DNA from: Mobula hypostoma | Taxonomy: Eukaryota | Direction of reading: 5' to 3' | Length of the DNA: 64,000 bases | NCBI RefSeq assembly: GCF_963921235.1 | Contig: NC_086097.1 | Coordinates: 132,868,001 to 132,932,000, forward strand | Shown here: positions 5,527 through 63,625 of the stretch, piece by piece | Layout: every line of letters starts with the position of its first letter | How positions within the stretch are numbered: the first letter of the stretch is position 1 | Notes under the pieces: generated by a model | The model's database searches: none | Seen by the model: only the letters and a program-made list of their open reading frames with translations | Told to the model about the DNA's origin: nothing | Program-made: the position numbers and the translations under genes

Positions 5527-6084
5527 AGTGATTCAGTTTGGAAGATCAAACGTGAAGGAAGAGTACAAGGTCTTTTATGAGAATCTTAGATGTGTGGAGG
5601 AACAGAGGGATCTTGTAATCCAAGTCCACATATTCCTCAAAGTTGCTGTATACTTGATAGGTTAATTAAGAAGGTGTGTAGTATGCTGGCCTTCATTAGT
5701 CAAGGGATTGAGTTCAAGATCTCTAGATTATGATGCAACTGTATAAAACTCTGATTACATCACACTTAGAGTACCCTGTTCAATTCTGTTTGCTTCATTA
5801 TAGGAAGGATGTGGAAGCTATAAAAAGGGTTCAGAAGAGATTTATTAGGATGCTCCCTGGATTAGAAGATATGTCTTAAGAGGAAATGTTAAGTAAGCTA
5901 AGGCTTTTCTCTTTGGAGCAATGAGGGATGGGATGCTAATTGATAGAGACGTGTAAGATTATGAGAGGCATAAATAGAATGGACAGCCAACACCTTTCTC
6001 CCAAGCAGCAAAAGCCAATAGATACAGACATGAGAACGTGTATTTAAAATGAGTGGATGCAAGAAAAATGGAGAATAATGGGCT

Positions 6085-7435
6085 ACACACACAAAAAATG
6101 CTGGTGAGCGCAGCAGGCCAGGCAGCATCTATAGGAAGAGGTACAGTCGACGTTTTGGACCGACACCCTTTGTCAGGACCAACTGAAAGAAGAGATAGCA
6201 AGAAATTTGAAAGTGGGAGGAGAGGGAAGATCCAAAATGATAGGAGAAGGCAGGAGGGGGAGGAGTGGAGCTAAGAGCTGGAAAGTTGATTGGCAAAAGG
6301 GATACAAAGCTGGAGAAGGGAGAGGATCATGGGACGGGAGGCCTAGGGAAAAAGAAAGGGGTGGGGGGGAAGCCCAGAGGATGGGCAAGGAGTATAGTGA
6401 GAGGGATAGAGGGAGAAAAAAAGAGAGGAAAAAAAAGGAAAAGAAAACAATAATAATAATGAAAAATAAATAGATAGACGGATAAATAAATAAATAAATA
6501 AATAAATAAGGGATGGGGTACGAAGGGGTGGTTGCACATTAACGGAATTTAGAGAAGTCAATGTTCATGCCATCAGGTTGGAGGCTACCCTGACGGAATA
6601 TAAGGTGTTGTTCCTCCAACCTGAGTGTGGCTTCATCTTTACAGTAGAGGAGGCCGTGGATAGACATATCAGAATGAGAATGAGCGTAGGTGTTCAGCGA
6701 AATGATCTCCCAGTCTGCGTCGGGTCTCGCCAATATATAGAAGGCCCCATTGGGAGCACCGGATGCAGTATATAACACCAGCCGACTCACAGGTGAAGTT
6801 TCGCCTCACCTGGAAGGACTGTCTGGGGCCCTGAATGGTGGTGAGGGAGGAAATGTAAGGGCATGTGTAGCACTTGTTCCAATTACAAGGATAAGTGCCG
6901 GGAGGGAGATCAGTGGGAAGCGATGGGGGGGACGAATGGACAAGGGAGTTGCGTAGGGAGCGATCCCTGTGGAAAGCAGAAAGAGTTGGGGGAGGGAAAG
7001 ATGTGCTTGGTGGTGGGATCCTGTTGGAGGTGGCGGAAGTTACAGAGAATTATATGTTGGACCCGGAGGCTGGAGGGGTTGTAAGTGAGGACAAGGGGAA
7101 CCTTATTCCTAGTGGGGTGGCGGGAGGATGGGGTGAGAGCAGATGTGCGTGAAATGGGAGAGATGCATCTGAGAGCAGAGTTGATGGTGGAGGAAGGGAA
7201 CCCCCTTTCTCTAATAAATGAAGACATCTCCCTCATCCTAGAATGAAAAGCCTCATCCTGAGAGCAGATGCGGCGGAGACGGAGGAATTGCGAGAAGGGG
7301 ATGGCGTTTTTGCAAGAGACAGGGTGAGAAGAGGAATAGTCCAGATAGCTGTGAGAGTCAGTAGGCTTATAGTAGACATCAGTGGATAAGCTGTCTCCAG
7401 AGACAGAGACAGAAAGATCTAGAAAGGGGAGGGAG
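6085..7435 (-). mobile_element. Penelope-like element (Neptune-type), 5'-truncated
   Basis: Reverse complement aligns with 57085-58415: RT thumb region, GIY-YIG remnant (LRLEEQHLIFRQGSLQPDGMNIDFSKFR), pyrimidine-rich 3' UTR, decayed hammerhead at about 6144-6180. About 55 bp are deleted in the GIY-YIG near 6682. Confidence 0.93.
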
Positions 7436-7764
7436 ATTGGATTGATCGTGAAGTGGGTTTATAGGGGTTGGCACAACATCCTGGGCTGAAGGGCTCATAC
7501 TGTGCTGTAGTGTTCTATGTTCTACCCTCCTAAGAATCCTACCATTTACTGGATACTTTCATTTTACACTTGATCTCTCAAAGTGCAGTATCTCAGACTG
7601 TCCAAATTGAATTCTGCCTTCCATTTCTCTTATGCTGTTTCCAATGCTTTGTAATGATCTGCTCGAGTGGCATGCAAATCAAAGTTTTTCACTGTACCTT
7701 GGTACATGTGACAACAATAAACTAATTAAACAAATAAAATTTTATTGAAAAAAATAATAACTAC

Positions 7765-8184: not shown

Positions 8185-10350
8185 GTGCAGAGTGCTAATT
8201 TCTGCATGCAGAGCCCTCCACTCTCTCTGTACCAATCCCAATGTTACCGTCAAATCAGTAGGCAAAGTGGGTGCTGTTGTACTCTGGTGCACAGACCTCT
8301 ACCTTGCTGAGGCCAGGTGGCAACTCTCAGACACCTCCTGATACAAACCCTTGAAGAGGACCCTTACTCCAGACCATCAGAAAACTGCCCTCGACACCAT
8401 CACTGACCTCATCAATTCTGGAGAACTTCCATCCACTGCCACCAAACTCTTTGTACCCTTACCCCACACGGTTTGTTTCTACTTCCTATCTAAGATTCAC
8501 AAACCTGACTGTTCAGTAGGCCTATTGTCTCTGCCTTCTCCTGCCCTACTGAACTCATGTCCTCATACCTCAACTCTATCCTATCCCCCTTGGCTCAGTC
8601 CCTTCCCAGCTACATCCGTGACACTTTTCATGCTCTTCATCTCCTCACTAACTTTCACTTGCCTAGCCTTGATCACCTCCTTTTCACTATGGATGTCTAT
8701 CCCCCATCAAGAAGGCCTTAAAGTGCTCCACTTCTTTCTCGATAAAAGAACTAACCAGTTCCCCTCCAACACCATCCTCCTCCATCTAACAGAACTGGTC
8801 CTCAACCTCACCAAATTTCCTTCGGCTCCTCCCACTTTCTACAGATTCAAAGGATAGACATGAGCACCTACATGGGCCCCAGCTATGCCTGTCTTATTGT
8901 TGGCTACATAGAACAGTCCATATTCCTAGATTTCCCCAGTAATATTCCACAGCACTTCCTCCACTACATTGACGACTGCATTGGCGCTGTTTCATGCAGC
9001 CACTCTGAGCTCATCAATTTCACCAACTTTGCCTTCAATTTCCACACTGCCCTTAAATTCACTTGGTCCTTTTCTGACACCACCCTCCCCTTTCTCAACG
9101 TCCCTGTCACCATCCTTGGAGACAAACTGTCGACCGACCTCCTTTATAAGCCTCCTGATTCCCATGGTTGTCTTGACCACACCTTTTCACAGTCTGTCTC
9201 CTGCAAAAATACCATTCTTTGTCTCCCCTGCACCTGTTCCCAGGACATGGCTTTCCTTTCCAGGACATCAGAGATGGCCTCCTTCTTTAAGCAATGGGGC
9301 TTCCCTTCCTCCACCATTGATACTACCCTCCCCCACATCCCTAAATTTTCCGCATGTCCGCACTCACCCTATCTTCCCCCGCCTTAACAGTAATATAGCT
9401 CCTCTTGTCCTTCCCTACCGCCCTGTGACCCTCCACATCCAACATATCATTCTTCACAATTTACGCCATCTCCAAAGGGATCCTACTTCTAAATATATCT
9501 TCACCTCCCCCCGCTCTCTCCACTTTCTGCGGGGTTCACTCCCTTCGTGATTATCTTGTCCACTCATCCCTCCCCATTAATCCCCCTCCCGGCACTTATA
9601 CCTGCAAGTGGCCAAAATGCTACACCTGCCCATTCACCTCCTCCCTCACCTCCATTCAGTGCCCCAAACCATTCTTCCAGGTGAGACAACACCTAACCTG
9701 CGAATCTGTTGGGGTTCTCGATTGTGTCCAGTGCTCCCAACGCGGTCTCCTCTACATTAGTGAGTCCCATCGCAAACTAGGGAACTGTTTCGTTAAGCAC
9801 CTCTGCTCCATCGGCCAAAAGCAGAACTTCCTGGAGGCCAAGCATTTAAATTCCGATTCCAGTTCCTATTTCGACATGTCAGTCCATGGTCTCCTCTTGT
9901 GCCATGATGAGGCCAATCTCAGGATGGAGGAGCAACACCTTATATTCCATCTGGGTAGCCTCCAAGATGATGGCATGAATAATGATTTTTCCTTCCAGTT
10001 AAAAAAATTCTTTCCCTCTTCTTCTAACTCTCTACTCTGGCCCCTTACCTCTTCTCACCTGCCTATCACTTCACCCCTAGTGCCCCTCCTCCCTCCCTTT
10101 CTCCTATGGTCCTCTTCCTCCACCTATCAGATTCCTTTCTCTCAATCCCTTTACCTTTCCTACCCACCTAGCTTCACCTATCACCTTCTAACTATCCTCC
10201 TTCCGCTCCCCCCCCACCTTTTTATTCTGTCATTTGCCCCCTTTCTTTCCAGTCCTGAAGAAAGGTCTCAGCCTGAAACATAGACTGCTTATTCATTTTA
10301 AAAGATGCTGCCTGACCTGCTAAGTTCCTCCGGCAATTTGTGTGTGTTTG
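8185..10350 (+). mobile_element. Penelope-like element, older subfamily, decayed RT + GIY-YIG
   Basis: Translations FYFLSKIHKP, MGPSYA, LHYIDDCIG, YKPPDSH, CESVGVLDCVQCSQRGLLYISE, MEEQHLIFHLGSLQDDGMN; 3' UTR with hammerhead motif at 10250-10287. Confidence 0.92.
10250..10287 (+). ncRNA. Minimal type I hammerhead ribozyme motif (PLE-associated)
   Basis: CAGTC-CTGAAGA-A-AGGT(CTCA)GCCT-GAAA-CA-TA^-GACTG. Stem I CAGTC/GACTG, intact CUGANGA and GAAA cores, 4-bp stem II. The stem III palindrome has decayed (ACGT>ACAT). Confidence 0.7.
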
Positions 10351-10942: not shown

Positions 10943-10949
10943 GAATCCT

Positions 10950-11310
10950 AAAGATGCTGGGATTCCAGAGAAGCACACATAAAATGCTGGAGTAACTCAG
11001 CAAGTCAGGCAGCATCTATTAAAATGAATAAGGGGGTCAGCATTTCAGGCCAATACACTTCAACAAGACTGGAAAGGAATGGGGCAGAAGCCAGAATAAG
11101 AAGGTGGGTAACACACTCAAAATGCTGGAGGAACTTGATGAAGGGTCTCGGCCCGAAACATCGACTGTACACTTTCCCATAGATGCTGTCTGGCCTGCTG
11201 AGTTCCCCCAGCATTTGGTGTGCTTCGATTTTTCCAGCATCTGCAGATTTTCTCTTGTTTGTGATAAGGAAGTGTTGGGGGAAAGAATACAAGCTAGCAG
11301 GTGACATTGT
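10950..11310. mobile_element. Nested PLE 3'-end fragments: old minus-strand 3' UTR containing a short plus-strand fold-back copy (about 11110-11262)
   Basis: aaatgctggagtaactcagcaagtcaggcagcatc (minus), then acacactcaaaatgctggaggaact-tgatgaagggtctcggcccgaaacatcgactg...ccagcatctgcagattttctcttgtttgt (plus). Confidence 0.8.
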
Positions 11311-20769: not shown

Positions 20770-21750
20770 CTACAGCAAGGGATGTGGCTGCAAGTGGTGG
20801 ATGGATATCCTATCAAGTTGTAGTTGTCTCAGCCAATCACAGCTCCACAATGCGGGCCCTCCTGTTTTTACTACATAGAAACCCAATGTTTGTTGGTTGT
20901 TGTATTTCTCTGCTGTGAATGTCATTCTCACAGGAGCTATCTTTTCTCCAGTACAAGTTCTTAGTTGGATATCTGTAGGCTTCGGTTCAGTATCTTTGAA
21001 ATACTGTTCAGACTTATTTTGTGGAATGATTGAAACAACCGACCTAGTGTCCAATTCCATTTCAATTAATTTGCCACTTACTTCTGGTGTAAGCCATAAT
21101 GTTTGTCTATTGTTAGTTTTCATATTGTAACACTCAAGAATACTCAGTCCTGTGTCCCTTTCATCATAATCAGGTTTCTCATCAACAGCATGCAGATTAG
21201 TTTTCTTATTGAAACTGCAACTTGACTTTTTTTTTTCTCTTCCCCGTGCAGTCTGTTTATTCTTTTGTCTGCCTGACAAGCTTTTTGTATGTCCTACTTT
21301 GTTGCATTTTCTGCAAGTTTCACCTTTAATCCCCCATTGCTCTGGTGTATGTGAACTCCTGGCACAATGGTAACACAATTTGTTTGGACTTACAGATTTC
21401 TGTTTAAAAGTTGCAGTTCTATTCACACTCACTTTCATTCCTGACTGCAACTCATTTGTGTCTCTGACTGCTGTTTCCATTGATACAATGATTTCAACTG
21501 CTCTTTTAAATGTGAACTGTGCTTCAGTTAGGAGCCATTTTTGAATGATTTCTTTTAAGATTGCATAATCTAAATGATCTCTCAGTACATCATTAAGTCC
21601 ATCACTGAACTGAAGGTGCTCGGACAATCTCTTCAATTCAGCCACATTAGATGAAATGGACTCCTCTTCCTTTTGAATCTGCTTATGAAACTTAAAGTGT
21701 TCTGCAATCAACAATGGTTTCAGTTCTAAATGTTCCTGCATTATGTTCAC
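20770..21750 (-). pseudogene. Gypsy gag-protease remnant ORF (326 aa)
   Basis: Longest ORF in the track; CCHC knuckles and aspartic protease motif degraded to DTR; the N-terminus is cut off by frameshifts and an L1 insertion. Confidence 0.88.
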
Positions 21751-21929
21751 AATATGTTCACAAAGCTAATTTCTGCTGGTTTGGTTGGAGTAGTTAAAAT
21801 CCCAAGCAAACTGTATACTTTTCCATCTATTGATCTCAGTAACACTGGCAGTGACTTTTCATTGGCTATTTCATTTGCTTCAAAATAGTACTCAATTCTT
21901 TCAATATACATCATCCAGTTATCTGTTGT

Positions 21930-25629: not shown

Positions 25630-26715
25630 GACATATGCAGAGAACTAGGTCTTTTGGCCCATTAGGTCTGCTCCGCCTTTGGATTACGGCTGATTTATTT
25701 TCCCTCTCAACCCTATTCTCCTCCCCTCTCCGCATAACCATGAGACCATAAAACGTACGAGCAGAATCAGACTTCTCGGCCCATTGAATCTGCTCTTCCA
25801 TTCTATCATGGTCATAGCCTTTCTCCTCTAACCTTTGATATGCTTACTAATCAGGAACATATCAGCATCCGCTTTAAATATACCCAATGACTTGACCCCC
25901 ACAGCTGTCTGTGGCAGTTAATTCCACAGATTAACCAAACCTCTGGCTGAAGAAATTCTGAAGCTGCACCCTCTGGTCCTAGACGCTCCCACTATTGGGA
26001 ACATTGTCTTCAAATCCAATCCATCTAGGCCTTTCAATATTCAATAGTTTCAATGAGATTCCCCACCCCCACCCCATTCTTCAAAGTTCCAGAGAGCACA
26101 GGCCTAGAGTCATCAAACAGTCCTCAACATTAACCCTTTCATTCCTGAGATCATTACTGTAAACCAACTTTAGCCAAAACTACTTTACTCAGCTATTGGG
26201 CCCAAACTGCTCACAGTACTTCAAATCTGATCTAAAGTATAATCATTACTTCTTCACTGTTATATTCTAGTCCTCTGGAAATGAATGCTAAAATTGCATT
26301 TGCCTTCCTTACTACTGACTGAAACTGCAAGTTAACATTTAGGGAATCCTGCATAAGGACTCCAAAATCCTTTCGCTCCTCTGATTTCTGAATTCACTTC
26401 CTATTTAGAAAATAGACTGTACCTTTTGTTCCTTATATTAGACTGATGATATACACTTCCTTATGCTGTATTCCAGCTACCACATCTCTGCCTAATTTAT
26501 TTTAGTCCACTGCAGACTCCCTGTTTCCTCAACACTATCTGACCCTCCATTTATCTTCATATCATCCACAAACATGGCCACAAAGCCATGAATTCCATCA
26601 TCCAGATCATTAACATATAATGTGAAAAGTCACAGGCCTAACACCGACCACTTGTCACTGGCAGCCAACCAGAAAAGGCCACCTTTATTCCCACTCTTTG
26701 CCTTCTGCCAATCAA
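25630..26715 (-). mobile_element. CR1 3' portion containing a second short CR1 3' end (about 25735-25812)
   Basis: The CR1 3' UTR motif ggcccatt..tctgctc occurs twice; decayed RT on the minus strand (VKKANAILAFISRGLEY-like). Confidence 0.8.
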
Positions 26716-27799: not shown

Positions 27800-28290
27800 T
27801 TCAGATTGTGAGCAGTTTTGGGCCCCATACCTAAAAAGAGTCCAGAGGAGGCTCACAAGAATGGTCTCAGGAATTAAGATCTTAACATACGAGGAGCATT
27901 TAATGTCTTTGGGCTTGTGCTCAATGGAGTCCAGAAAGACTGGGGGGAGATCTCATTGAAACAAACCTACTGGACACTAAAAGGCCTGGACAGAGCGGAG
28001 ATGGAGAGGGTATTGCCATTAGAAGGAGCGTTTAGGATCTGAGGCCACAGCATCAGAATAAAGGGAATCCCTTTAAAACAGATGAGGAGAAATTCACAGA
28101 AAGTGGTGACTTGGTGGAGGCCAAGTCATTCCCTGTCTTTAAGGTTGAGCTTAATAGGTTCTTGATTGGTAAGTGGGTTAAGGGTAATGGGGAGTAGGAA
28201 GGACAAAGGTGTTGAAGAAAACAACTATGATTAAATGGTGGAGTAGACTCAATGGGCTGAAGAGCCTAATTCTACTCCTATATGTTATAG
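27800..28290 (+). mobile_element. CR1 3' fragment
   Basis: DCEQFWAPYL, YEEHLMSLGLCSME-like translation; 3' UTR atgggctgaagagcctaattctactcctata. Confidence 0.8.
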
Positions 28291-29619
28291 TTTTATTGTC
28301 TTATTTCCAGCATCTGCAATATTTTGGATTTTCACATCTCACCATATGTTCTCTCCAGGCTAGGGGAAATACAAGTTTAATTCCTGGAAACCATGATGAA
28401 ATTCACATTCTTTTGAAAAATAATCTGTTTTCCATCTCCATTGATGTACTTCATTATGTTAACGGCATCAGTGCACCAGAGAAGAGAGCATTCAGTGCCA
28501 TTAGAATAAATGGTGCAATAACTTGTTCATAAAAGGACAATAATTACCTTGAATTTTTTTTTGACATGTATAAACTTCAAGATGTGAATAGAGAAATCTG
28601 GGGCATGAAGGCAATGTGATTTCTGACTGGACTGCATTTGCAATTAACAAAACTAGGACAGAACAGCATCATGTAACTGAGAACAACATCCTTCACAAAG
28701 TGCCAAAACTCACTTGAGACTTGTTAGATACAACATCTCCGTTACAACTGTAATTGTAACTTGGAAATGAAACTGGGAATATTTTCTATCACTTTCTATG
28801 ATCACAAAAAGAGCATTTGTCCATCTTGGAGAAACTTCATTAATGTTATGTTGTTTATTACAGTCTTTGCTCGTGAAAGCTCCAGTGAGTTCTGCAGTGC
28901 CATTTTGCTTTTGTTAGGCATTGTTAACACCTTTTAAAATAGCTATCTGTATTTTCTTTGTAAGACCTGTAAATCTTTATAATTCCTGTAAATGGGGTGA
29001 TGCTTGAAGGAAAGCAGTTTTTGCGTACGGAATGACTCTGAAAAAGGATGATTAACTGCAGTTTACATTGGCAATGGGAATAAAGGTCTATCTGTATGTA
29101 TGAGTAACAGCCACATGAAGTTTTCTAACAGAATGGATGTGAAGGAGTTGTTTTTCCTTGGGGTAGACTCTTGAATTTAAAGACACCATTGCTCATCCCT
29201 TTTGTTTTTTTATAATTGCAAGACAGTGCTGGATGTTAAGAATATTAACTACACCAAGTCTACCCCACTAGTGAGTTGCTGGATGGCAATGGAGCACTGG
29301 GATGTAGCTACCTTAGCTGACCTAGCGGTATGCAATCCAACAAACAGTGGAAATAACTGGTTTCAACATTTTTCTTGTGATCACAAGACCCTTTTGGATA
29401 TTTGTAAAGTTGACCACTGTGAGTCCAATTCACTGTTTCATTGGTGAGACCGATGCTGAAGGAGCCGCGTTGCCTCAGTTGTTGAAACATGGCTGAAAGA
29501 AGATTAACGCTGGGAGCTTAATGTCCAAGGATACACATTGGATCAAAAGGAAAAGCAGTTAGGCAGAGGAGAAGTGGCAGATGGAATATAATACCAGGAA
29601 GTGTATGGTCATGCACTTG

Positions 29620-33160: not shown

Positions 33161-33308
33161 TAGCTTATATCTATCTCCTCCACATTTTCCCAAATGAAAT
33201 GAAGGCCAACTTGCTGCAGCTCCTTAGAGACCATGTTAAGGAACTGAAGCTGCAGCAAGTTGGCCTTCATCTCATTTGGGAAAATGTGGAGGAGATAGAT
33301 ATAAGCTA
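33161..33308. repeat. 61-bp inverted repeat with 26-nt spacer inside CR1 ORF1
   Basis: 33161-33221 is the reverse complement of 33248-33308 with 1 mismatch. Confidence 0.95.
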
Positions 33309-41559: not shown

Positions 41560-42700
41560 ACAGAATTAGAAAGATGGCAAGATCCAATTAAAAAGAAGTT
41601 AGGTTTAATCAGAGCAGCCATTGTGTGAGTGGGCAAGTGTTAGAGTGGAGAGTTGAGGCATTGTCTCTCAAGGTTTTGGCAAGGAGAGGCATAGATCGTA
41701 GACAGATTTTTTTTCATTATTTATTCTTTCTTTCCTTCTTATTGCACATTTAGAGCAGTGGAGATGCCAGAGAGGATAGTCGAATGCTACTCTTGTGGAA
41801 TATGGGAAGGCAGGGAGATCTCCAGTGCCTCTGATGACTACACCAGAGAAAGTGCATCCAGCTGCAGCTTTTAAACAGACCATGCTGTGCAGTTGGACTG
41901 GAACTGGTTGAACTCCGGATCATCTGGGACGCTAAAGATTTGATTGATAGGACATTCAGGGAGGTAGTTACACTCAAGGTGCAGGACAAATGTAGCTGGG
42001 TGACTGCCAGGAGGGGAAAGGGATTAGGCAGTCATTGCAGAGCACCCCTGTGGCTGTGCCTTTTAAGAACAGGTACACTGTTTTGGATACCGTTGGAAGA
42101 GATGACCTAGCAGAGGAAAGCCACAGCAGTCAGGTCTCTGGCACTGCGTCTGGCTCTGTGGTTCAGAAGGGAAGTGGGGGGGGGGGGGAAGAGGCAAGCT
42201 GTAGTGATAGGGAATTCATTGGTTAGGGGAACAAGAAGGAGGTTCTGTGGATGAGAACAAGATTCCGAGATGGTATGTTGGCATCCTGGTTCAGGGAGAT
42301 CTCAGATCAAGTCCACAGCATCCTTAAGTGGGAGGGTTAAGATATTGTAGTGCATGTCAGTGCCAATGGCATGGGTAGGAGAGGTGATGAGGTCCTGCAA
42401 AGTGAATTCTGAGAGTTAGGTTTGAAGTTAAAGGGCAGGATCTCCAGGGTGTGATCTCATGATTGCTACTCATGCCATGTGCTAGTGAGGCCAGAAAAGG
42501 AAGATCCTACAGCCTAATACATGGCTAAGGAGATAGTGCAAGAGGAAATGCTTCAGATTTTTGGATCGGGGGCTCTCTTCCAGGGAAGGTGGAACCTGTC
42601 CAGAAGGGATGGTTTGCATCTGAACTTGAGAGGGATGAATATCCTAGTGGGGAAGTTTGCTGGTACTGTATGGGGTGGGGTGGGGGCAGATACTAAATTC
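41560..42700 (+). mobile_element. CR1 5' portion (5' UTR + esterase ORF1), decayed
   Basis: QSTPVAVPFKNRYTVLDTVG and RDGLHLNLRGMNILVGKFA; aligns with 32930-34010. Confidence 0.85.
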
Positions 42701-42999: not shown

Positions 43000-43155
43000 A
43001 CAAGAGATTGCAGAGCAAAAAACAAAACACTGGTCGATCTCAGCAGGCCAGGCAGCATCTGTGGAGAGAAATCCACAGTCAATGTTTCACGGTGAGCCCA
43101 TTCATCCAGATGTTACCTGACCTACTGATTTCCTCTAGCAGCTTGTTTCTGCTAG
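43000..43155. mobile_element. Old fold-back PLE-end element
   Basis: Arm ctcagcaggccaggcagcatctg..cagtcaatgtttc..ccattcatc, followed by the inverted arm cagatgttacctgacctactgatttcctctagca. Confidence 0.7.
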
Positions 43156-43269
43156 GGATGGAGTTTGTAGGTAAAGTCCATTAGACAGATAAACCATTGA
43201 TAATGATGATAACGAGACTCGTGTTGTTTCAACCCTGACCTAAACCAGGGAAGCTACTGATTATTAATC

Positions 43270-43485
43270 AAAGTGCAAGAGAAACACAGCAGGTCAGGCT
43301 GCATCAATGAAAATAAATGGACATTCGATGTTTTTGTTGAGATTCATGAACTTCCAGCTAAAGGGTCTCAACCTAAAATATCGACTGTCCATTTCCCTCC
43401 ATGGTTGCCTCCTGATGCTTTGAGTTCCTCCTGTGTCTTGTGTATTATTCCAGACTCCTGCATCTGCAGTCTCTTATGTCTCCAG
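43270..43485. mobile_element. Old fold-back PLE-end element
   Basis: cagcaggtcaggctgcatc..tggacattcgatgtttt, then the inverted arm aagggtctcaacctaaaatatcgactgtcca..gagttcctcc..gcatctgcagtc. Confidence 0.7.
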
Positions 43486-44744
43486 TCCAGAGATCATCCT
43501 AGGGAGATAAGTTATTTGAGCAATTTGTAGAGCACTGGAACCTTTACCAAAGACATTCTGTTATCCCTGACATTACTTTTACCACTCTGAATCCCATAAC
43601 ATAACATTGAGTGCCTATCAGCCACCCAGTAATATTGTTTGCCATATTTATATAGGGTGTGGTAAATGAAGAGTTTGTTGTCGGTAATCCATGCTAAATT
43701 CATCTCCTGAACACACTAGGTTTGCTTAGTCCCCGAGATCACAATTGCACGTTTCAAGTGCAGTGTGCACTGCCCTGAATAAACTGCTCTGCTTTGAATG
43801 GTGTTGACGTCTCTTGCTAGCTCAACTTAATGCTGCCATCAGGCAGGAGATAGCGGAGTCTCAAGGTTCAACAGCAGCTTCTTCCGCACTGCAGTCAGGT
43901 TCTTCAACCAACCTGAAGAGCCCTCATTCTACGTCAGACCACATTTCCCATGCCGTTATCTTTATTCTGGCACATTTTGCATTTCAGGTTATGTATAATC
44001 TACATTAATTTGTTTCTGTAATTTGTGTTTGCTATCTCTGTAACGTTCTCTGTTGCTGCCACAAAAGTTAATTTTAATGTCATTTATAACCTGGGTATGT
44101 GTGCATATGACAATAAAATTGAATGTGCGTATTTAGCAACAACATTTGGACATGTTAGCCTGCATCAAAGTCTTCCCTCAGACAGCTAGTGTACCAATAG
44201 TTTCCACCTGCTTGTTTCTAAATAATGAGAGCTTGAGAACTACGAATCGTGGTCTCTATCACTGTGATTTCAGATCATCTGTGACTGTATTAAAGCCTTT
44301 GAGGAAGGCTGTGTCACGTGTGTACCAAATTATCATCCAAACTACATTTCTGTTCATCAAAGACATTGTGATATCAACAACATTTAAGCAAATAATCTCC
44401 TTATTGTACAAGATGTCAAATTCTCTCCATAATACAAATTTAAAACACTATTTGTGCATGCCATCCTGAAACTTGCCAATTTGAAGACTAGGTTGTGGAT
44501 TGAAGCTGACAGTTAAGTTATTAGATATTTATTTGAAGCAGCAGAGTAAATCTTGCAAATTATGAAACAGTGAACACTCAAAATAAGGAATTGTCAGCTA
44601 TAAAGACTAAGAATAAATCAGAAGGTTCAAAACTGTATTTGACAGGCTTGTTAATCATGGGGATGGAGAGAACTGCCAAGCAAATGGAGTCAGGAAACAG
44701 AGCAGAAAATATCTAATTAAATAAGGAATCTGATCAATGGGCCA

Positions 44745-44837
44745 TACATACAAAATGCCTGAGGAACTCAGCAGATCAGGCAGCATCAATGGAGAGGAAT
44801 AAAGAGTTGACGTTTAGGGTCTCGACCTGAAATGTCC
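44745..44837. mobile_element. Fold-back PLE-end element, left part (right part at about 46264-46350, separated by CR1 insertions)
   Basis: caaaatgcctgaggaactcagcagatcaggcagcatc..gttgacgttt|agggtctcgacctgaaatgtc; the remainder ctccaaagatgg..cagttcctccagtattttgtgtgtg lies at 46264. Confidence 0.65.
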
Positions 44838-46110
44838 ATAAGTCCATAAGATATAGGAGCAGAATTAGGCCATTTGGCCCATTGAGTTCACTCTTCAATT
44901 TCATCATGACTGGTCCAATTTTCCACTCAGTCCCAGTCTCTTGTCTTCTTCCTGTATCCCTTCATGCTGTGACCAATCAAGAATCTATCAACGCAAACAC
45001 GAGGAATTCTGCAGATGCTGGAAATTCAAGCAACACACATCAAAGTTGCTGGTGAACGCAGCAGGCCAGGCAGCATCTCTAGGAAGAGGTACAGTCAACG
45101 CTTCGGGCCGAGACCCTTCTTCAGGACTGACGAAGGGTCTCGGCCCAAAATGTCAACTGTACGTCTTCCTAGAGATGCTGCCTGGCCTGCTGCGTTCACC
45201 AGCAACTTTGAAGAATCTATCAACCTCTGCTTTAAGTATACATGGACTTGGCCTCCACAATTGCCTGTGGCAAAGAAATCCACAGATTCACCACACTCTG
45301 ACGAAAGAAATTCCTTGTCAACTCCATCTTAAAAGGACGCCTCTTTATTCTGAGGCTGTGTCCACTGGTCTATGTAAAAAAAACGCAGAGCCCTGTGGAA
45401 CATCACTAGTCACTGGCAGCCAGAAAAGGCTTCCTTTATTCCTGCACTTTGCTTCTTGCTATTCAGCTACTGCTTTATCCATGCTGGAATCTTTCCTGTA
45501 ATACCATGAGCTCGTAGCTTGTTAAGCAGCCTCATGTGTGACACCTTATCAAAGGCCTACTGAAAATCCAACCAATTCAACATTAACCAATTCACTTTTG
45601 TCTATCCTGCTTGTTATTTCTTCAAATAATTCCAACAGATTTGTCAGGCAAGATTTTCCCTTGAGGAAACCACATTGACTATGGCCTATTTCATCATGTG
45701 CTTCCAAGTACTCTGGAACCTCATGTTTAATAAATAACTCCAACATCTCCCCAACCATTGAGGTCAGACTAAGAAGCCTACAGTTTCCTTCCTTCTGCCT
45801 GTCTCCCTTCTTGAAGAGTAGAAGGACATTTGCAATTTTCTATTCTTCCAGAACCATTCTAAAATCTAGTGATTCTTGCAAGTTCATTACTAGTGCCTTC
45901 ACGCACCTCTTTCAGAATCCTGGGGTATACACCATCCGGTCCAGGTGACTTATCTACCTTCAGACCTTTCAGATTCCCAAGAACCTTCTCTCTACTTATG
46001 GCAACTTCAGGCATTTCATACCCCTTGACACCACATCATACTGTTAGTGTCTTCCACAGTGAAGACTGATGCAAAATACTTATTCAGTTCTTCCGCCATT
46101 TCATTTCCAA
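44838..46110 (-). mobile_element. CR1 LINE RT/3' end with internal deletion
   Basis: Tail (cataag)-type at 44838; ORF 45549-45758(-) GFLKGKSCLTNLLELFEE; VDKSPGPDG. Confidence 0.88.
44993..45210. mobile_element. 218-bp fold-back PLE-derived mini-element with two head-to-head hammerhead motifs
   Basis: 84-bp inverted arms 45041-45124 and 45127-45210 (7 mismatches); perfect 14-bp TSD AAGAATCTATCAAC at 44979-44992 and 45211-45224; arms match the PLE 3' end at 58324-58407. Confidence 0.93.
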
Positions 46111-47201
46111 TTATAGGAAAGATGTCAACAAAATAGAGAGAATACAGAGAAGATTTACTAGAATGTTACCTGGGTTTCATCTCCTAAGTTACAGAGAAAG
46201 GTTGAACAAGTTAGGTCTTTATTCTCTGGAGCGTAGAAGGTTGAGGGGAGACTTGATAGAGGTGTCCCCTCCAAAGATGGTGTTTGACTTGTTCAGTTCC
46301 TCCAGTATTTTGTGTGTGTTGCTCCAGCATTATCCGCTTCTGTGTCTGCAGTAGCTTGATCTTGTGTACTACCATGCAAATTCTATTCCAGCAAGGATGA
46401 TCAAGAAATTATGATAGGACCCATGAGAACAAATGGAAATTCTGCTGCTTTCAGTTGCTTGAATTGGAAATTCTAAAAGCAATGATAGTTCCTGTACTTC
46501 TATGTTATATTGACTATCCTGTTGTACATAGTATTAAAAATTACTATAATTGCACATTGCACATTTAGACAGAGACAAAACATGAAGATTTTTACTCTTC
46601 ATGTATATGAAGGATCTAAGTAATAAAGTCAATTTCGTCATTCATTCAAGTCAATTAGCCAGATGAAAAAACATTACAGTCAAATTCGAGTGATGAGGAG
46701 ATTAGGAGTCTGTAATACCTTTAGTCTTGATACTTACAAAGAAAAATAAGATATAGAAGCAGGAGTAAGCCATTTGACCACTCATGCCTGCTCTCCCATT
46801 TAATGAAATCATGGCCACTCTGCCACATCAGTGCCATTCATGAGCTGACCACATATTCCCCAATTTCTGTTATATCCAAAATCCCTTTTTTTTCTGTCTT
46901 AAATAAATTCCAAAGATTCAGCTCCTTTTGAGTGAAGGAAAGTCTTCTCTTTTCAGTGCAGAACAGACAATCCCTTAGACTGGTGCTGGGGCCCTGAGTT
47001 CTAGATTCACCAACCTAAGCAAACATGAAATCCATATCTATCTAATTTAAGAGTTTTACAAGTTTCAATAAGACCTCTACTTATTTTGTTAACCTCCAAG
47101 AAGACCACAACCATGCTGTTCGGTTTGGAGGTTTGCATGCCTCAATGATCTGGAGAGCTATGTTGGCTGGGGTCAAGACTTTACACTTTTGCTCTTGGTA
47201 G

Positions 47202-54697: not shown

Positions 54698-55710
54698 CTG
54701 GAATGCCATTGAGAGAGAGACAGTCAAAGGAAAAATCAATGTTGAATGCCATTGGTGAGCACTGAAATCCTCATCACAGAATGAGCCAGTTCATCCTATG
54801 ATATTACAAATGGACCTTAGAAAGATCTCTTTATATAGTCCCATACCCTCAAAACCTTGTAAATGATCTCTGTTCATGCATTTACCTGATTCTTCTTTGA
54901 AAACTCTATGGGATCTACTTTTTCTGTCCTTCCAATAGTTCATTCAGGTCACGAACATTGGTACACAGTTCTATTGACCTAGGTTCAAACCTAATCTTTG
55001 GTGCCGTCTTGTGGAGTTTATACCTTCTCCCTAGGTCTGTGTCAAAGTCATCTCAAGGTCATGTTGGCTGGCACATTTATTAGTCACTGTAAATTGCCCT
55101 TGCTGCGTAGCTGAGTTGTTGAGAATCTGGGGAGAGATGATGGGAATAGAACATAGAAAATGGTACAAGAACATAGAACAACACAGCACAGTAACAGGAC
55201 CTTTGATCCACAATGTCTGCACTAAAATTAAACTAAATTAAACGAAATCTCTTCTGCGTGCACATGATCCTTATGCTTCCATCCCTTGTATACTCACATG
55301 TCTAACAGTCTCTCAAATACCTGTTTTACCTGCTTTCACTACTACTCTGCAGCCTGTTCCAGGCATGTAGGGAATGTCGGGAGTATAAGATAGGATTAGT
55401 GTAGAATGGTAATTGATGACAGGCTGAAGGGACTGCTTTATGCCGAGGATACTCCAAACATAGTTAAAACTACTCATTAGTTTTAAATATAACTATATAT
55501 ATACACACAGAAACATAATATTATTATAACAGTTCATTTTTTATAATTGGCCAAAGAGCCTAATTCTGCTGCTATATCTTATGGTCTTCATTTCTTCACA
55601 GGAAGCTCCCATAAGTAGCAATGTATCAATACCCAAGTGAGCAGTTTTAATAATGTTGAATGAATGAATATTGGCTAATATTGGCCAAAACAAACTAAAC
55701 AGATAGTTTA

Positions 55711-58035
55711 CTTCTTCATCTCCTTCAGATCCCATCGTCAGCTCCTGGGTCCTCAGAGGCTCCATCTTCCTCTCACCCCAACCCTCCCCTCTCCATTGAC
55801 ACCACCAGCCTCCCCCCTCCCCGCTCTGATCCCAGCTCTCATCCGTGCTGGGTCTTTACCATCCCCTCCGACCTTCAACTGTCGGAGGCAGAGCGCTCTG
55901 TCCTCAGTAAGGGCCTCACCTTTGTCTCCCTTCGCCCACACCTCAGCGAGTTCTGTGTTCGCCATGATGCGGAACTTTTCTTCCGCCGTCTCCGTCTCCA
56001 AGCCTACTTCTTCAGCAAGGACTCTTCCACCCCCACCGATGACCCCTTCTCCCATCTCCAACCCTCCTCTTCTTCATGGACACCCCGCTCTGGTCTTCTG
56101 CCTGCTCTGGATCTCTTTATCGCTAACTGCCAACGGGGCATCAACCGTCTCGACTTCACCGCACCTTGTCCCCATTCCAACCTCACTCCTTCGGAACGCT
56201 CTGCTCTCCACTCCCTCTGCACTAATCCTAACATTATTAAACCCGCCAATAAGGGGGGTGCTGTTGTAGTCTGGCGTACTGACCGCTACCTTGCCGAGGC
56301 ACAGCGACAACTTGCGGATACCTCCTCTTATTTACCCCTCGATCGTGACCCCACTAAGGAGCACCAGGCCATTGTCTCCCACACCATCACTGACTTTATC
56401 CGCTCAGGGGATCTCCCATCCATTGCTACCAACCTAATAGTTCCCACACCTCGCACTTCCTGTTTCTACCTCCTACCCAAGATCCACAAACCTGCCTGTC
56501 CTGGCCGACCTATTGTCTCAGCTTGCTCCTGCCCCACCGAACTCATTTCTGCATACCTCGACACGGTTTTATCACCCCTTGTTCAATCCTTTCCGACCTA
56601 TGTTCGTGGCACTTCTCACACTCTTAAACTTTTCGATGATTTTAAGTTCTTTGGCCCCCACCGCTTTATTTTCACCATGGATGTCCAGTCCCTATATACT
56701 TCCATCCCCCATCAGGAAGGTCTCAAAACTCTACGCTTCTTTTTGGATTCCAGACCTAATCAGTTCCCCTCTACCACCACTCTGCTCTGTCTAGCGGAAT
56801 TAGTCCTTACTCTTAATAATTTCTCCTTTGGCTCCTCCCACTTCCTCCAAACTAAAGGTGTAGCTATGGGCACCCGTATGGGTCCTAGTTATGCCTGCTT
56901 TTTTGTTGGCTTTGTGAAACAATCTATGTTCCGTGCCTATTCTGGTATCTGTCCCCCACTTTTCCTTCGCTACATCGACGACTGCATTGGCGCTGCTTCC
57001 TGCAGGCATGCAGAGCTCGTTGACTTTATAACTTTGCCTCCAACTTTCACCCTGCCCTCAAGTTTACCTGGTCCATTTCCGACACCTCCCTCCCCTTTCT
57101 AGACCTTTCTGTCTCTGTCTCTGGAGACAGCTTATCCACTGATGTCTACTATAAGCCTACTGACTCTCACAGCTATCTGGACTATTCCTCTTCTCACCCT
57201 GTCTCTTGCAAAAACGCCATCCCCTTCTCGCAATTCCTCTGTCTCCGCCGCATCTGCTCTCAGGATGAGGCTTTTCATTCTAGGACGAGGAAGATGTCTT
57301 CCTTTTTTAAAGAAAGGGGCTTCCCTTCCTCCACTATCAACTCTGCTCTTAAACGCATCTCCCGCATTTCATGTACATCTGCTCTTACTCCATCCTCCCG
57401 CCACCCCACCAGGAATAGGGTTCCCCTGGTCCTCACCTACCACCCCACCAGCCTCCAGGTCCAACATATTATTCTCCGTAACTTCCGCCACCTCCAACGG
57501 GATCCCACCACTAAGCACATCTTTCCCTTCCCCCCCCCCTGCATTCCACAGGGATCGCTCCCTACTCAACTCCCTTGTCCATTCGTCCCCCCCATCCCTC
57601 CCCACTGATCTCCCTTCTGGCACTTACCCGTGTAAGCGGAACAAGTGCTACACATGCCCTTACACTTCCTCCCTTACCACCATTCAGGGCCCCAAACAGT
57701 CCTTCCAGGTGAGGCAACTCTTCACCTGTGAGTCGGCTGGGGTGATATACTGCATCCGGTGCTCCCGATGTGGCCTTTTATATATTGGTGAGACCCGACG
57801 CAGACTGGGAGACCGCTTTGCTGAACACCTACGCTCTGTCCGCCAGAGAAAGCAGGATCTCCCAGTGGCCACACATTTTAATTCCACATCCCATTCCCAT
57901 TCTGACATGTCTATCCACGGCCTCCTCTACTGTAAAGATGAAGGCACACTCAGGTTGGAGGGACAACGCCTTATATTCCGTCTGGGTAGCCTCCAACCTG
58001 ATGGCATGAACATCGACTTCTCTAACTTCCGCTAA
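55711..58035 (+). pseudogene. PLE RT/GIY-YIG polyprotein, no start codon, two frameshifts (about 57030 and 57535)
   Basis: Frame open from the 5' junction: LSKGLTF, IKPANKGGAVVVW, FYLLPKIHK..PGRPIVS, MDVQSLYTSIP, GVAMGTRMGPSYA, RYIDD. After the shifts: PFLD, YKPTDSH, PCKRNKCYTC, GVIYCIRCSRCGLLYIGET..RFAEH..GMN. Confidence 0.93.
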
Positions 58036-58319
58036 TGCCCCACCTCCCCCTCGTACCCCATCTGTTACTTATTTTTATACACACATTCTTTCTCTCACTC
58101 TCCTTTGTCCCTCTGAATATACCCCTTTCCCATCCTCTGGGTCCCACCCCCGCTTGTCTTTCTTCCCGGACCTCCTGTCCCATGATCCTCTCGTATCCCT
58201 TTTGCCTATCATCTGTCCAGCTCTTGGCTCCATCCCTCCCCCTCCTGTCTTCTCCCATCATTTCGGATCTCCCCCTCCCCCTCCCACTTTCAAATCTCTT
58301 ACTCACTCTTCCTTCAGTT

Positions 58320-58355
58320 AGTCCTGACGAAGGGTCTCGGCCTGAAACGTCGACT
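58320..58355 (+). ncRNA. Minimal type I hammerhead ribozyme motif (best-preserved copy)
   Basis: AGTC-CTGACGA-A-GGGT(CTCG)GCCT-GAAA-CG-TC^-GACT. All core nucleotides present, GUC cleavage triplet ending at 58351, palindromic ACGT stem III. Confidence 0.82.
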
Positions 58356-59519
58356 GCACCGCTTCCTAGAGATGCTGCCTGGCCTGCTGCGTTCAGCAGC
58401 AACTTTGATGTGTGTTGCTTGAATTTCCAGCATCTGCAGAATTCCTGTTGTAAACAGATAGTTAACATTTTCTTCTTTGAAATAGTGTGAAGGGACCTGG
58501 GACATGGGCAGTGGGAAAGCCAGATTTAAAATTTCACCTCTCAAAAGTGCAGTGCTCCGGAGTCACGTCTGTTCAGCTAAGCGCAGTGAGATGTGGAAAT
58601 CCAAGCCCAAAGTCCTGATGAGTGGTTTTGACCCTGAAAACCTACAGTTCCTTTGCCCCCCAACAGATGCTGCTCAACCTGCCAAATTCCAGCAGCAGTT
58701 AAGTTTATTGCTCCAGATTCCAGCACCCGCAGTCTGCTGTATCTCCTAGCACATTCTGCCTTTCCCAATAGTTATAACCTGTTTGATCTAGTGGATTAAA
58801 GGCAACCTAATACTTCATTCATTCTCAGAAACAAAATCAGAATCAGGTTTATTCTCTCTGAAGCATGTTGTGAAATTTGTTGTTTTGTAGCAGCAATATT
58901 GATCAGTGCACACATGAAAATAAATTACCATAAGTGACAATAAGAAATACAGAATATGAGAATAAATTAGCAGTGCAAAAAGAGAGAAGAAGAGTGAGGT
59001 AGCATTCAGAAATCTGATGGCAGAGGGAAAGGAGCTGCATGCAATAAGGAACAGCTCTGTGAAACTATTTTCTGCATTGTTATATCTCATATAATACATC
59101 CATTACATTTATTACAGTGGTGTGTTCAAATCAATTTATTGCAAAGCATCAAAGGCTGAAAGAGCACATTATTGTTTTTTTGTGTGTTTTGTCAGCTCTA
59201 CCCGAGGTAGCTTCAGATTGTTGAGTTGCTGATTATAATTCAAAGTTTTGTTTCTGCAGTAAGTGGGAGGTGATCTCATACTTTGCCTTATTAGCAAACA
59301 CTGCTGACAGAGCTGGGTGAAATGGCATTGAAGAGATTCTACAGGGTTATGGGGAAGGAATGCAGTCTTAAGCTCTGCAACCCGTGGGCTCTGATTGTGG
59401 GTTGTAGGAAGATCGACAAGTATCTACAGTATGTGAAGGCTACCCAAGCATGGTGGGACAAAGTTCACAATAGTGTCAATATACAGGACAGCTGGCAGAA
59501 ACCTTTGTTTGCAATAATC

Positions 59520-60687: not shown

Positions 60688-62415
60688 TCAGGAAGGTCTC
60701 AAAGCTCTCTGCTTCTTTTTGGATTCCAGACCTAACCAGTTCTCCCCTACCACCACTCTCATCCATCTAGCAGAATCAGTCCTTACCCTTAATAATTTCT
60801 CCTTTGGCTCCTCCCACTTCCTCCAAACTAAAGGTGTAGCCATGGGCACCAGTATGGGTCCCAGCTATGCCTGCCTTTTTGTTGGCTTTGTGGAACAATC
60901 CGTGTTCCAAGCCTATACTGGTATCTGTCCCCCACTTTTCCTTCGCTACATCGATGACTACATTGGCACTGCTTCCTGCACGCATGCTGAGCTCGTTGAC
61001 TTCATTAAATTTGCCTCCAACTTTCACCCTGCCCCCCAAATTTACCTGGTCCATTTCCGACACCTCCCTCCCCTTTCTTGATCTTTCTGTCTCTATCTCT
61101 GGAGACAGCTTATCTACTGATGTCTACTATAAGCCTACGGACTCTCACAGCTACCTGGACTATTGCTCTTCCCACCCTATCTCTTGCAAAAATGCTATCC
61201 CCTTCTCGCAATTCGTCCATCTCGGCCGCATCTGCTCTCAGGATGAGGCTTTTCATTCCAGGACAAAGGAGATGTCTTCCTTTTTTAAAGAAAGGGGCTT
61301 CCCTTCCTCCACCATCAACTCTGCTCTCAAATGCATCTCTCCCATTTCACGCACATCTGCTCTCACTCCATCCTCCCGCCACCTCACTGGGGATAAGGTT
61401 CCCCTTGTCCTCACCTACCACCCCACCAGCCTCCGGGTTCAACATATAATTCTCTGTAACTTCCGCCACCTCCAACGGGATCTCACCACCAAGCACATCT
61501 TTCCCTCACCCCCCTCTTTCTGCTTTCCACAGGGATCGCTCCCTACGTGACTCCCTTGTCCATTTGTTCCCCCCCCCATCCCTTCCCACTGATCTCCCTC
61601 CCAGCACTTATCTTTATAAGTGGAACAAGTGCTACACATGCCCTTACACTTCCTCCCTCACCACCATTCAGGGCCCCAGACAGTCCTTCCAGGTGAGGCG
61701 ACACTTCACCTGTGAGTCGACTGGGGTGATATACTGCGTCCGGTGCTCCCGATGTGGCCTTCTATATATTGGCGAGACACGACGCAGAATGGGAGACTCT
61801 TTCACTGAACGCCTACGCTCTGTCCGCCAGAGAAAGCAGGATCTCCCAGTGGCCACACATTTTAATTCCACGTCCCATTCCCATTCTGATATGTCCATCC
61901 GTGGCCTCCTCTACTGTAAAGATGAAGCCACATTCAGGTTGGAGGAAAAACACCTTATATTCCATTTGGGTAGCCTCCAACCTGATGGCATGAACATTGA
62001 CTTCTCTAACTTCTGTTAATGCCCCTCCTCCTCTTCTTACCCCATCCCTTGTTTATTTATTTATTTATTCCCCTTTCTTTCTCTCTCTTTTTTCTCCCTC
62101 TGTCCCTCTCACTATATATTCCTTTGGTTCTCCTCTCCCCCTTTCTTTCTCCCTAGGCCTCCCTTCCCATTATCCTCTCCCTTCTCCAGCCTTGTATCCC
62201 TTTTGCCAATCAACTTTCCAGCTCTTAGCTCCATCCCTCCCCCTCCTGTCTCCTCCTATCATTTCAGATCCCCCCTCCCTCTCCCACTTTCAAATCTCTT
62301 ATTATCTCTTCTTTCAGTTAGTCCTAACAAAGGGTCTCGGCCCGAAATGTCGACTGTACCTCTTCCTATAGATGCTGCCTGGCCTGCTGCGTTCCATCAG
62401 CATTTTGTGTGTGCA
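60688..62415 (+). mobile_element. 5'-truncated PLE (RT C-terminal half + GIY-YIG + 3' UTR)
   Basis: GVAMGTSMGPSYA, RYIDD, GVIYCVRCSRCGLLYIGET; frameshifted; hammerhead core mutated to CTAACAA at 62324-62330. Confidence 0.95.
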
Positions 62416-63625
62416 GCTTATCCCTGTAATTTTTTCTATCTTTTTCCCACTGTTCTGTAAAATCATCTCCTTTAAGTATTATCCATTTCTTTGTTGAATG
62501 TTTCCTGGCACGCTCTCCTTTCAGCCACTGTATATGATTATAAGAACCTGTCATGAAAAAAAATGCTATCTCTTTTTCCGAACTCTGATGTCCTACACCA
62601 CTATGTTCAGGAGCAGCTAAGTTCATACAGCCATTGGGTTCTTGAAATGGTCTGTACAACCCCAACCCTACCTCTGCAATGGAACACCACGGATCACTTC
62701 TTGCACCACTATGGACTTGTCTCTGAGTGTGTTATTGTAGCACTAGTATCTTGTTTTGCACTCTCTTTTTCTCTTCACTGTCTTGCATATGTTACGTTCT
62801 GTGTGTTGTTGTCTGGATGTACGTGTCTGAGATGCTGCTACAAGAATGTTTTCATTGTACCTGTACCTCAATAATCTCAATTTGACTTCGTCGTTACAGA
62901 AGAGCATCTGATAGCAGGGTTAGGTTGTGCCTGGTGAAGATTAAATATGTCCATGGCAATCAAACTGACTACTGCCATATTTGATAATGGCTTCATGTTC
63001 AATTCCACCTAGGATCTTGGGAGGTTCTGTCAATATGGCTATGGTGGCATAGTGGCAAAGTCATGGATGTTTAAACTAAAAGGCCGACTAATTAAAACAA
63101 AACAGATTTAGAAATCCTCAAATCTGTTTCCATGGTCATTCCAATACATGTGTCTTTCTGAGCTCATTATCCCTCATTTCCCTTCATCCACCCATCTCAG
63201 CCTTACATCTGCTGAATAGCAGAAGGCAGATAATCTCAAAGATTCTCCAACAAATATATAATGAAGTTCTTAGACCTGAAATGTTAACTATCTGTTTCTC
63301 TCTCTATAGATTCTGCCTACTTGCTGAATGTTTCCAACATTTCCTATTTTTATTTCTGCAGATTTTTTTTTGATTCCCAAAAATTAATTTTTGTCCTTAG
63401 TGGCAATAATCTCATCCCTGTGATGCAGAAATTGGATTTGAATCATGAACCAGCAGATGCAGAATTTCACGTTAGTGAACCTGAAAATTAACATCAGTAA
63501 TGAGACAGTGAGGTTGTAAGAACTACCAAATTGTCAGAAAATTCTGGATCTCTGGAGCCTTCTTGGAAAGGAAGTCAGCCGTCTTTACTGTCCACCCGTT
63601 TTAGGGTTTCTTAACCAGATGCGAC

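Follow-up and report, generated by a model that had tools for sequence, protein, structure and literature searches.

Insertions of endonuclease-bearing Penelope-like elements (PLEs) have been described with an adjacent inverted pLTR, a tail on one inverted pLTR, a target-site duplication (TSD) of 9-10 bp and palindromes at head-to-head junctions (PMC3846280), and a comparable inverted layout appears in the legend to Fig. 2 of PMC8557442. In vitro, the Poseidon PLE nicks and extends both target strands and starts reverse transcription internally at two sites, which define the tail; hammerhead cleavage is not needed for its insertion (PMC11167929). Minimal PLE hammerheads, which do not cleave as monomers and cleave at a low level as dimers, can occur as dual motifs on opposite strands, 100-700 bp apart (PMC4209133). 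In the papers compared here, as far as their accessible text extends, the joining step of PLE insertions is called undefined.

Here, we describe a 218-bp insert at positions 44993-45210 of a 64-kb stretch of DNA (the window), the layout of which is already published in all its parts: inverted pLTR, one-sided tail, TSD, junction palindromes and opposite-strand hammerhead pairs. Similar to the inverted-pLTR insertions of endonuclease-bearing PLEs, the insert is head-to-head and has a one-sided tail, one TSD and a near-palindrome at its junction (PMC3846280, PMC8557442); unlike them, it is reduced to two end pieces without an element ORF, and the 5' end of one arm falls on hammerhead nucleotide (nt) 1 with a 2-nt match at the joint, a rule that does not appear in the accessible text of those reports. 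It shares with minimal PLE hammerheads a 4-bp helix I, an extra base before helix II and palindromic positions 15.2-16.2 without loop 3, but both of its motifs are mutated, one lacks half of helix I, and the opposite-strand pair overlaps by 2 nt instead of being spaced as reported in PMC4209133. Metazoan non-LTR retrozymes are also non-coding and PLE-related, with a type-I hammerhead and a long TSD; however, they are direct tandem repeats whose same-strand ribozymes release monomers and circles, whereas the insert is an inverted pair without such a second site (PMC7229834; bioRxiv 10.64898/2026.07.22.740005). No tandem array was found at the insert locus, where the motifs lie on opposite strands, and without a same-strand tandem the insert falls outside the definition of a retrozyme. 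In L1 twin priming, two target-primed cDNAs are joined at microhomology inside one TSD, and the second cDNA starts internally, which yields an inversion without duplication; in the insert, by contrast, both arms copy the same end. The two internal reverse-transcription starts of Poseidon explain tailed and tail-less ends in the way that we propose for the insert, although Poseidon of Anolis belongs to a different clade and the joining of two arms was not reconstituted in the accessible part of that report (PMC11167929).

Results

The features of the locus and of its closest PLE relative in the window are as follows.

44979-44992, no strand: left TSD, 14 bp; read from the sequence, the word occurring once in each of two paralogous repeats in the window
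44993-45128, minus strand: long arm, a PLE end repeat that begins at hammerhead nt 1 (AGTC) and includes the tail; by identity (121/127)
44993-45040, minus strand: one-sided extension including the PLE tail, 48 nt; by presence or absence across PLE ends in the window
45093-45128, minus strand: minimal type-I hammerhead motif, stem I complete, core changed; motif type as in PMC4209133
45125-45128, no strand: head-to-head junction including the 2-nt microhomology at 45127-45128; read from the sequence, with the same rule in six other junctions
45127-45210, plus strand: short tail-less arm, hammerhead nt 5 to nt 88; by arm comparison
45127-45158, plus strand: incomplete hammerhead motif, without the 5' strand of stem I, core changed; by motif
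45211-45224, no strand: right TSD, 14 bp; read from the sequence
44837-45390, minus strand: older interspersed repeat that was the insertion target, boundaries approximate; by paralogs at 28043-28296 and 25738-25958
55699-58446, plus strand: decayed 5'-truncated parent-type PLE with RT, CX4CxxC linker, GIY-YIG endonuclease and the same end repeat; by translations and Pfam

The two inverted arms (45041-45124 and 45127-45210) are 84 nt each, are identical at 77 of 84 positions and enclose a 2-nt centre, and the two copies of the TSD (AAGAATCTATCAAC) match at 14/14 positions, an exact match expected by chance at approximately 8e-9 per register; the arms, spacing and perfect duplication described in an earlier note on this DNA are therefore confirmed. 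Both outer ends of the insert are PLE 3'-type ends, one tailed and one tail-less, and a single TSD frames both. The target repeat, which we take to be a CR1-type LINE 3' end, has two paralogs in the window, each containing one copy of the TSD word with contiguous sequence on both flanks, which indicates that the duplication arose on insertion into the older repeat. The single insertion event proposed in the earlier note is borne out by these observations. For an orthologous empty site in two other organisms, no listed contig piece from four sequencing runs spanned the insert. Collection scans for outside copies returned 0 loci at first and then 27 metagenome loci and one viral locus, none of which matched over more than 33 nt and all of which were dropped as chance. 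No host gene was recognized; 128 stop-to-stop frames of at least 75 aa outside the PLE blocks gave four Pfam matches, two to LINE RT or endonuclease domains and two to ALKBH8_N, none of them close to the insert. The insert had been said to contain no ORF, but a stop-to-stop frame of 210 codons (44869-45501) runs across it; this frame has no Pfam match.

The insert is asymmetric, with the 48-nt extension present on one side only. In context, this extension is 93% identical to the PLE end at 58311-58446; it recurs at 58.4k and 11.2k, whereas the short arm and three PLE ends (62.4k, 6.1k and 10.3k) lack it. Across the long arm, 121 of 127 aligned bases are identical to the PLE end at 58320-58446, which upholds the PLE origin suggested earlier. 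The short arm stops approximately 6-12 nt short of other tail-less PLE ends, and the two arms have in common the 2-nt AG/CT at 45127-45128 (CT on the plus strand, AG on the minus strand). The insert thus displays all features of an inverted insertion of an endonuclease-bearing PLE: a pLTR source, an inverted 5'-truncated head-to-head copy, a tail at one end, given as 30-40 bp for this kind of insertion, and one TSD. The arm alignment agrees with the earlier counts of six mismatches out of seven within the hammerhead and of four CpG transitions; one more mismatch is a transversion at a CpG site. Ancestral CpGs number five in the 32 hammerhead positions of the arm versus one in the remaining 52, and this higher density accounts for the clustering of mismatches in the hammerhead, so that selection against ribozyme activity need not be invoked.

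The element at 55699-58446 matched RVT_1 (E 1.7e-5) and GIY-YIG (E 2.5e-4) in Pfam, both below the curated cut-offs. Its frame at 57103-58035 contains CKRNKCYTC followed by GVIY-C-x2-C-YIG and two His residues, which corresponds to a CX2-5CxxC linker before a C-terminal GIY-YIG with CCHH. This linker is common to Neptune and Nematis (PMC8557442); by linker and GIY-YIG domain, the parent PLE would be Neptune-type, with the linker also occurring in Nematis. Four decayed Neptune-type copies are present in the 64 kb, at 6082-7458 (minus), 8213-10349 (plus), 55699-58446 (plus) and 60688-62419 (plus), and those at 6k and 8-10k stand head-to-head. Further hammerhead-like motifs at 58611-58720 and 3051-3090 belong to more distant PLE end subfamilies, one of them lying 160 nt past the 58.4k element. 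Separately, a 331-codon frame at 20770-21765 (minus), without a Pfam match at E 0.01, resembles what we take to be a decayed LTR-retrotransposon gag-protease.

The minus-strand arm begins with AGTC at 45128, four bases ahead of CTGA, and the plus-strand motif has AGGA where AGTC is expected, so that two of four stem-I pairs are possible; stem I is therefore whole in the minus-strand hammerhead only. Each arm had been described as starting exactly at CTGA, which is correct for the plus arm, at nt 5, but not for the minus arm; likewise, the proposal of one outward hammerhead per strand holds for the opposite-strand arrangement but not for the completeness of the plus-strand motif. Both motifs carry core changes, which in hammerhead numbering we assume to affect positions 15.1 and 17 on the minus strand and G12 on the plus strand. 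The minimal PLE hammerhead pattern (helix I, CUGANGA, helix II, GAAA, UH) is present at 58320 and in neither motif of the insert. At the gathering score, Rfam gave 0 matches in the 64-kb window and no hammerhead family either at the insert or at 58320, where the copy is nearly intact; the motif itself and PMC4209133 are therefore the basis for calling hammerheads. With the limit raised to E 10, Rfam gave 11 matches, mostly to generic long-hairpin microRNA models and all below the gathering score, which were rejected as structure-only, and one match on the parent PLE copy was taken as chance.

The hairpin has a predicted MFE of -162 kcal/mol (z -20), and none of 200 shuffles folded as well. The energy cost of imposing stems I and II is 25-40 kcal/mol for the insert versus 0.4-14 kcal/mol for four of four ordinary copies, and the hammerhead bases are paired with upstream sequence at a mean probability of 0.66-0.89 in the insert versus 0.32-0.59 in one control. 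The stem I pair probability is 0.000 in the insert versus up to 0.006 in the control at 58320; this control itself rarely forms the stems, and equilibrium folding therefore discriminates only by energy cost. Because the motifs lie on opposite strands and point outward, a transcript of either strand meets the antisense arm first, and this arm is predicted to pair with the motif as the motif emerges in read-through. Both hammerheads, already mutated, are predicted to be buried in the hairpin and to be passengers in the insert. The core changes and the cost of the forced fold bear out the earlier view that this copy is probably catalytically dead. The idea that the sequence turned at the ribozyme cut site was rejected, as the junction lies 27-31 nt upstream of that site.

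Five two-armed PLE scraps, including the insert, are present in the window; the other four (approximately 11110-11260, 43000-43155, 43269-43480 and 44746-44836) are older and belong to other subfamilies. In each of these, the hammerhead start lies no more than approximately 12 nt from the beginning of one arm; the partner arms start near nt 72, 53, 10 and 26. When a TSD was sought for the four, 43000-43155 showed one of 10 bp with one mismatch (9/10), and none was found for the other three. The neighbours 43000-43155 and 43269-43480 are adjacent, and the second, like our insert, has both arms reaching into the hammerhead. The composite PLE insert at 10943-11260 comprises a minus-strand partial tandem standing head-to-head with a tailed arm that starts from near hammerhead nt 6. 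At 44746-44836, the LINE-type repeat into which the insert went truncates an old two-armed PLE end at hammerhead nt 32, and a matching pLTR piece resumes at approximately 46273 (46273-46350); the two pieces, between which no linking TSD was found, possibly make up a three-level nest of PLE, LINE and PLE. A further fold-back of 148 bp with 88% identical arms (33161-33308) lies in a LINE-type repeat related to 41957-42642, contains no PLE sequence and looks like a local inverted duplication.

Contigs from 4 of 24 listed sequencing runs were aligned to 44600-45600 at 88% likeness. An antisense shortened arm is joined to the sense arm at 45127 in 3 of the best 15 of 1395 joints and in 6 of the best 12 of 663 letter rows; the joints are a ranked, best-supported subset of a kind that often stems from repeats, and the counts for runs X1 and X6 are lower bounds. 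At least seven distinct other junctions occur among the joints and rows listed, in contigs of the source species and of a second species, three of the seven under two species labels, with partner breaks at hammerhead coordinates 39, 41, 56, 65, 68, 83 and 99. For six of these junctions the letters are known, and in every one AGTC is completed across the joint: the left side closes with AG (four), AGT (one) or GT (one), and TC or C comes next. Within the arm, 14 of 124 positions end in AG. Like the insert, these six use a 2-3-nt match to the first letters of stem I. The remaining listed joints connect the arms further out or involve neighbouring old repeats. Splicing was rejected as the cause of the other junctions, since GT follows one and GC follows one of the seven partner breaks.

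The depth of contigs at the joints reaches approximately 220, compared with approximately 7-19 for the single-copy flank, and several copies therefore share each junction, which could reflect either recurrence or small families; copy number was not read from summed contig depth, which does not measure it. The listed rows establish the variety of junctions and a shared joining rule, not frequencies. With one fixed end and few AG sites, identical junctions can recur independently, and thus even many copies of the exact junction would amount to a family only if they had private changes in common. The fixed feature is the start of one arm at stem I, not the fold-back point. In run X3, which we guess to be RNA, flank contigs show 0-1 differences and none crosses the insert, and the run was set aside as evidence; single X3 contigs with a depth of 725-1619 hold rearranged pLTR pieces (joints 44778 to 44996, 45050 to 45132 and 45037 to 45173), and these may derive from abundant transcripts elsewhere.

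Discussion

The insert is a minimal form of the published PLE insertion, consisting of a tailed end and an inverted tail-less end. We consider it probable that two head-to-head pieces of a PLE end repeat were inserted once, within one TSD, likely as cDNAs primed from nicked strands and joined at a 2-base match, and that the result is likely a dead by-product. In such a course of events, the PLE endonuclease would nick both target strands, and a short cDNA would be primed from each nick; the first would start at the tail site and run to stem I nt 1, and the second would start at the tail-less site and extend to nt 5 or beyond. The first cDNA could then anneal through its terminal CT to the AG at nt 5-6 of the second, after which trimming of the flap and fill-in would yield the 14-bp TSD. 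The arms would have been identical at birth and would have decayed later, mainly at CpG. The extreme truncation anchored at stem I that the earlier note offered as one reading is supported, in that the long arm begins at the first base of stem I.

The sequence alone does not separate twin priming from fold-back self-priming, in which a cDNA would pass stem I by a few bases, snap back on the 4-bp stem TCAG...CTGA, copy itself and later lose four loop bases. Junction palindromes are read in this way in PMC3846280, and the native context upstream of the core offers a 4-bp inverted match around a 6-nt loop. The short arm, moreover, lies wholly within the long arm, and the tail is on the arm reaching the hammerhead start in four of four window inserts with both arm ends visible. 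The present junction, however, would need a 2-nt loop; such a loop is too tight for a hairpin, and self-priming must therefore assume an additional 4-nt deletion. No upstream bases are present in the six other junctions of known sequence, all of which start at nt 1-3, and a 4-nt insertion is absent among the contig differences listed, a listing that is insensitive at this depth. We therefore regard such a fold-back by-product as unlikely.

Considerably less probable is a self-standing, non-autonomous hairpin family, retrozyme-like or SINE-like, that would be transcribed and mobilized as a 218-bp unit by a Neptune-type PLE. The clean TSD and the presence of PLE cis ends on both strands would suit such a family, as would the report that solo pLTRs can drive insertion in trans (PMC3846280) and the contig depths by which each other junction is common to several copies. 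Nevertheless, the exact junction has one copy in the 64 kb, at least seven other junctions exist, and the same-strand tandem ribozymes that retrozymes require are missing; half of stem I is missing from one motif, and sequestration is predicted for both. All seven arm differences resemble private decay, and at the listed sites 45097, 45101 and 45163 most of the depth in run X1 has the other letter. The retrozyme-like family raised in the earlier note thus finds no support in the opposite-strand motifs and scattered partner breaks. Randomly scattered breakpoints, which that note had named as part of the outcome that would speak against a family, are nearly what was observed: partner-arm breaks do scatter, but the start of one arm is fixed at stem I. 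Finally, it is barely conceivable that a replication template switch later added an inverted duplication to what had been an ordinary short PLE copy, for although the unrelated fold-back at 33161-33308 in a LINE-type repeat indicates that inverted duplications do occur in this genome, the perfect TSD directly abuts both outer ends of the insert and the short arm ends near the stop point of tail-less PLE ends.

If two nick-primed cDNAs were joined, the question arises why one of them should end at stem I nt 1. Tentatively, and on the basis of sequence features, we suggest that the PLE RNA may begin at base 1 of stem I and that internal initiation of reverse transcription 90-135 nt downstream may produce strong-stop-like run-off cDNAs whose 3' end is fixed and whose terminal CT could capture any AG on a second cDNA. 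The first base of stem I fits the Pol II initiator consensus YYANWYY (PMC5287107) in three of four longer PLE copies versus 1.2% of window positions, a match that the pyrimidine-rich context makes easier. Four further contexts gave one match, an isolated motif at 3051; the other three were not in register or had decayed too far. At 58296-58326, 62296-62326 and 10227-10257, stem I is directly preceded or overlapped by a pyrimidine tract and AG, and its start is compatible with an initiator as well as with a splice acceptor. In D. virilis, an intron ends at helix I (PMC4209133), at a position 46 + 75 nt from the transcription start (PMC2377424). In our literature search of openly accessible texts without supplements, no PLE paper used the term 'strong-stop', and nothing was found on an nt-1 boundary with AG joining.

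The insert as an object is ordinary; its value lies in being a clean record of how PLE insertions are joined. The run-off rule, if true, would account for this PLE's mini-insertions as well as its head-to-head junctions, with the insert as the extreme in which neither cDNA stopped short of the end. If transcribed, a copy would yield long double-stranded RNA, on which editing or small-RNA processing might act. Should the stem-I boundary prove to be the 5' end of the PLE RNA, the origin of PLE inverted junctions becomes testable.
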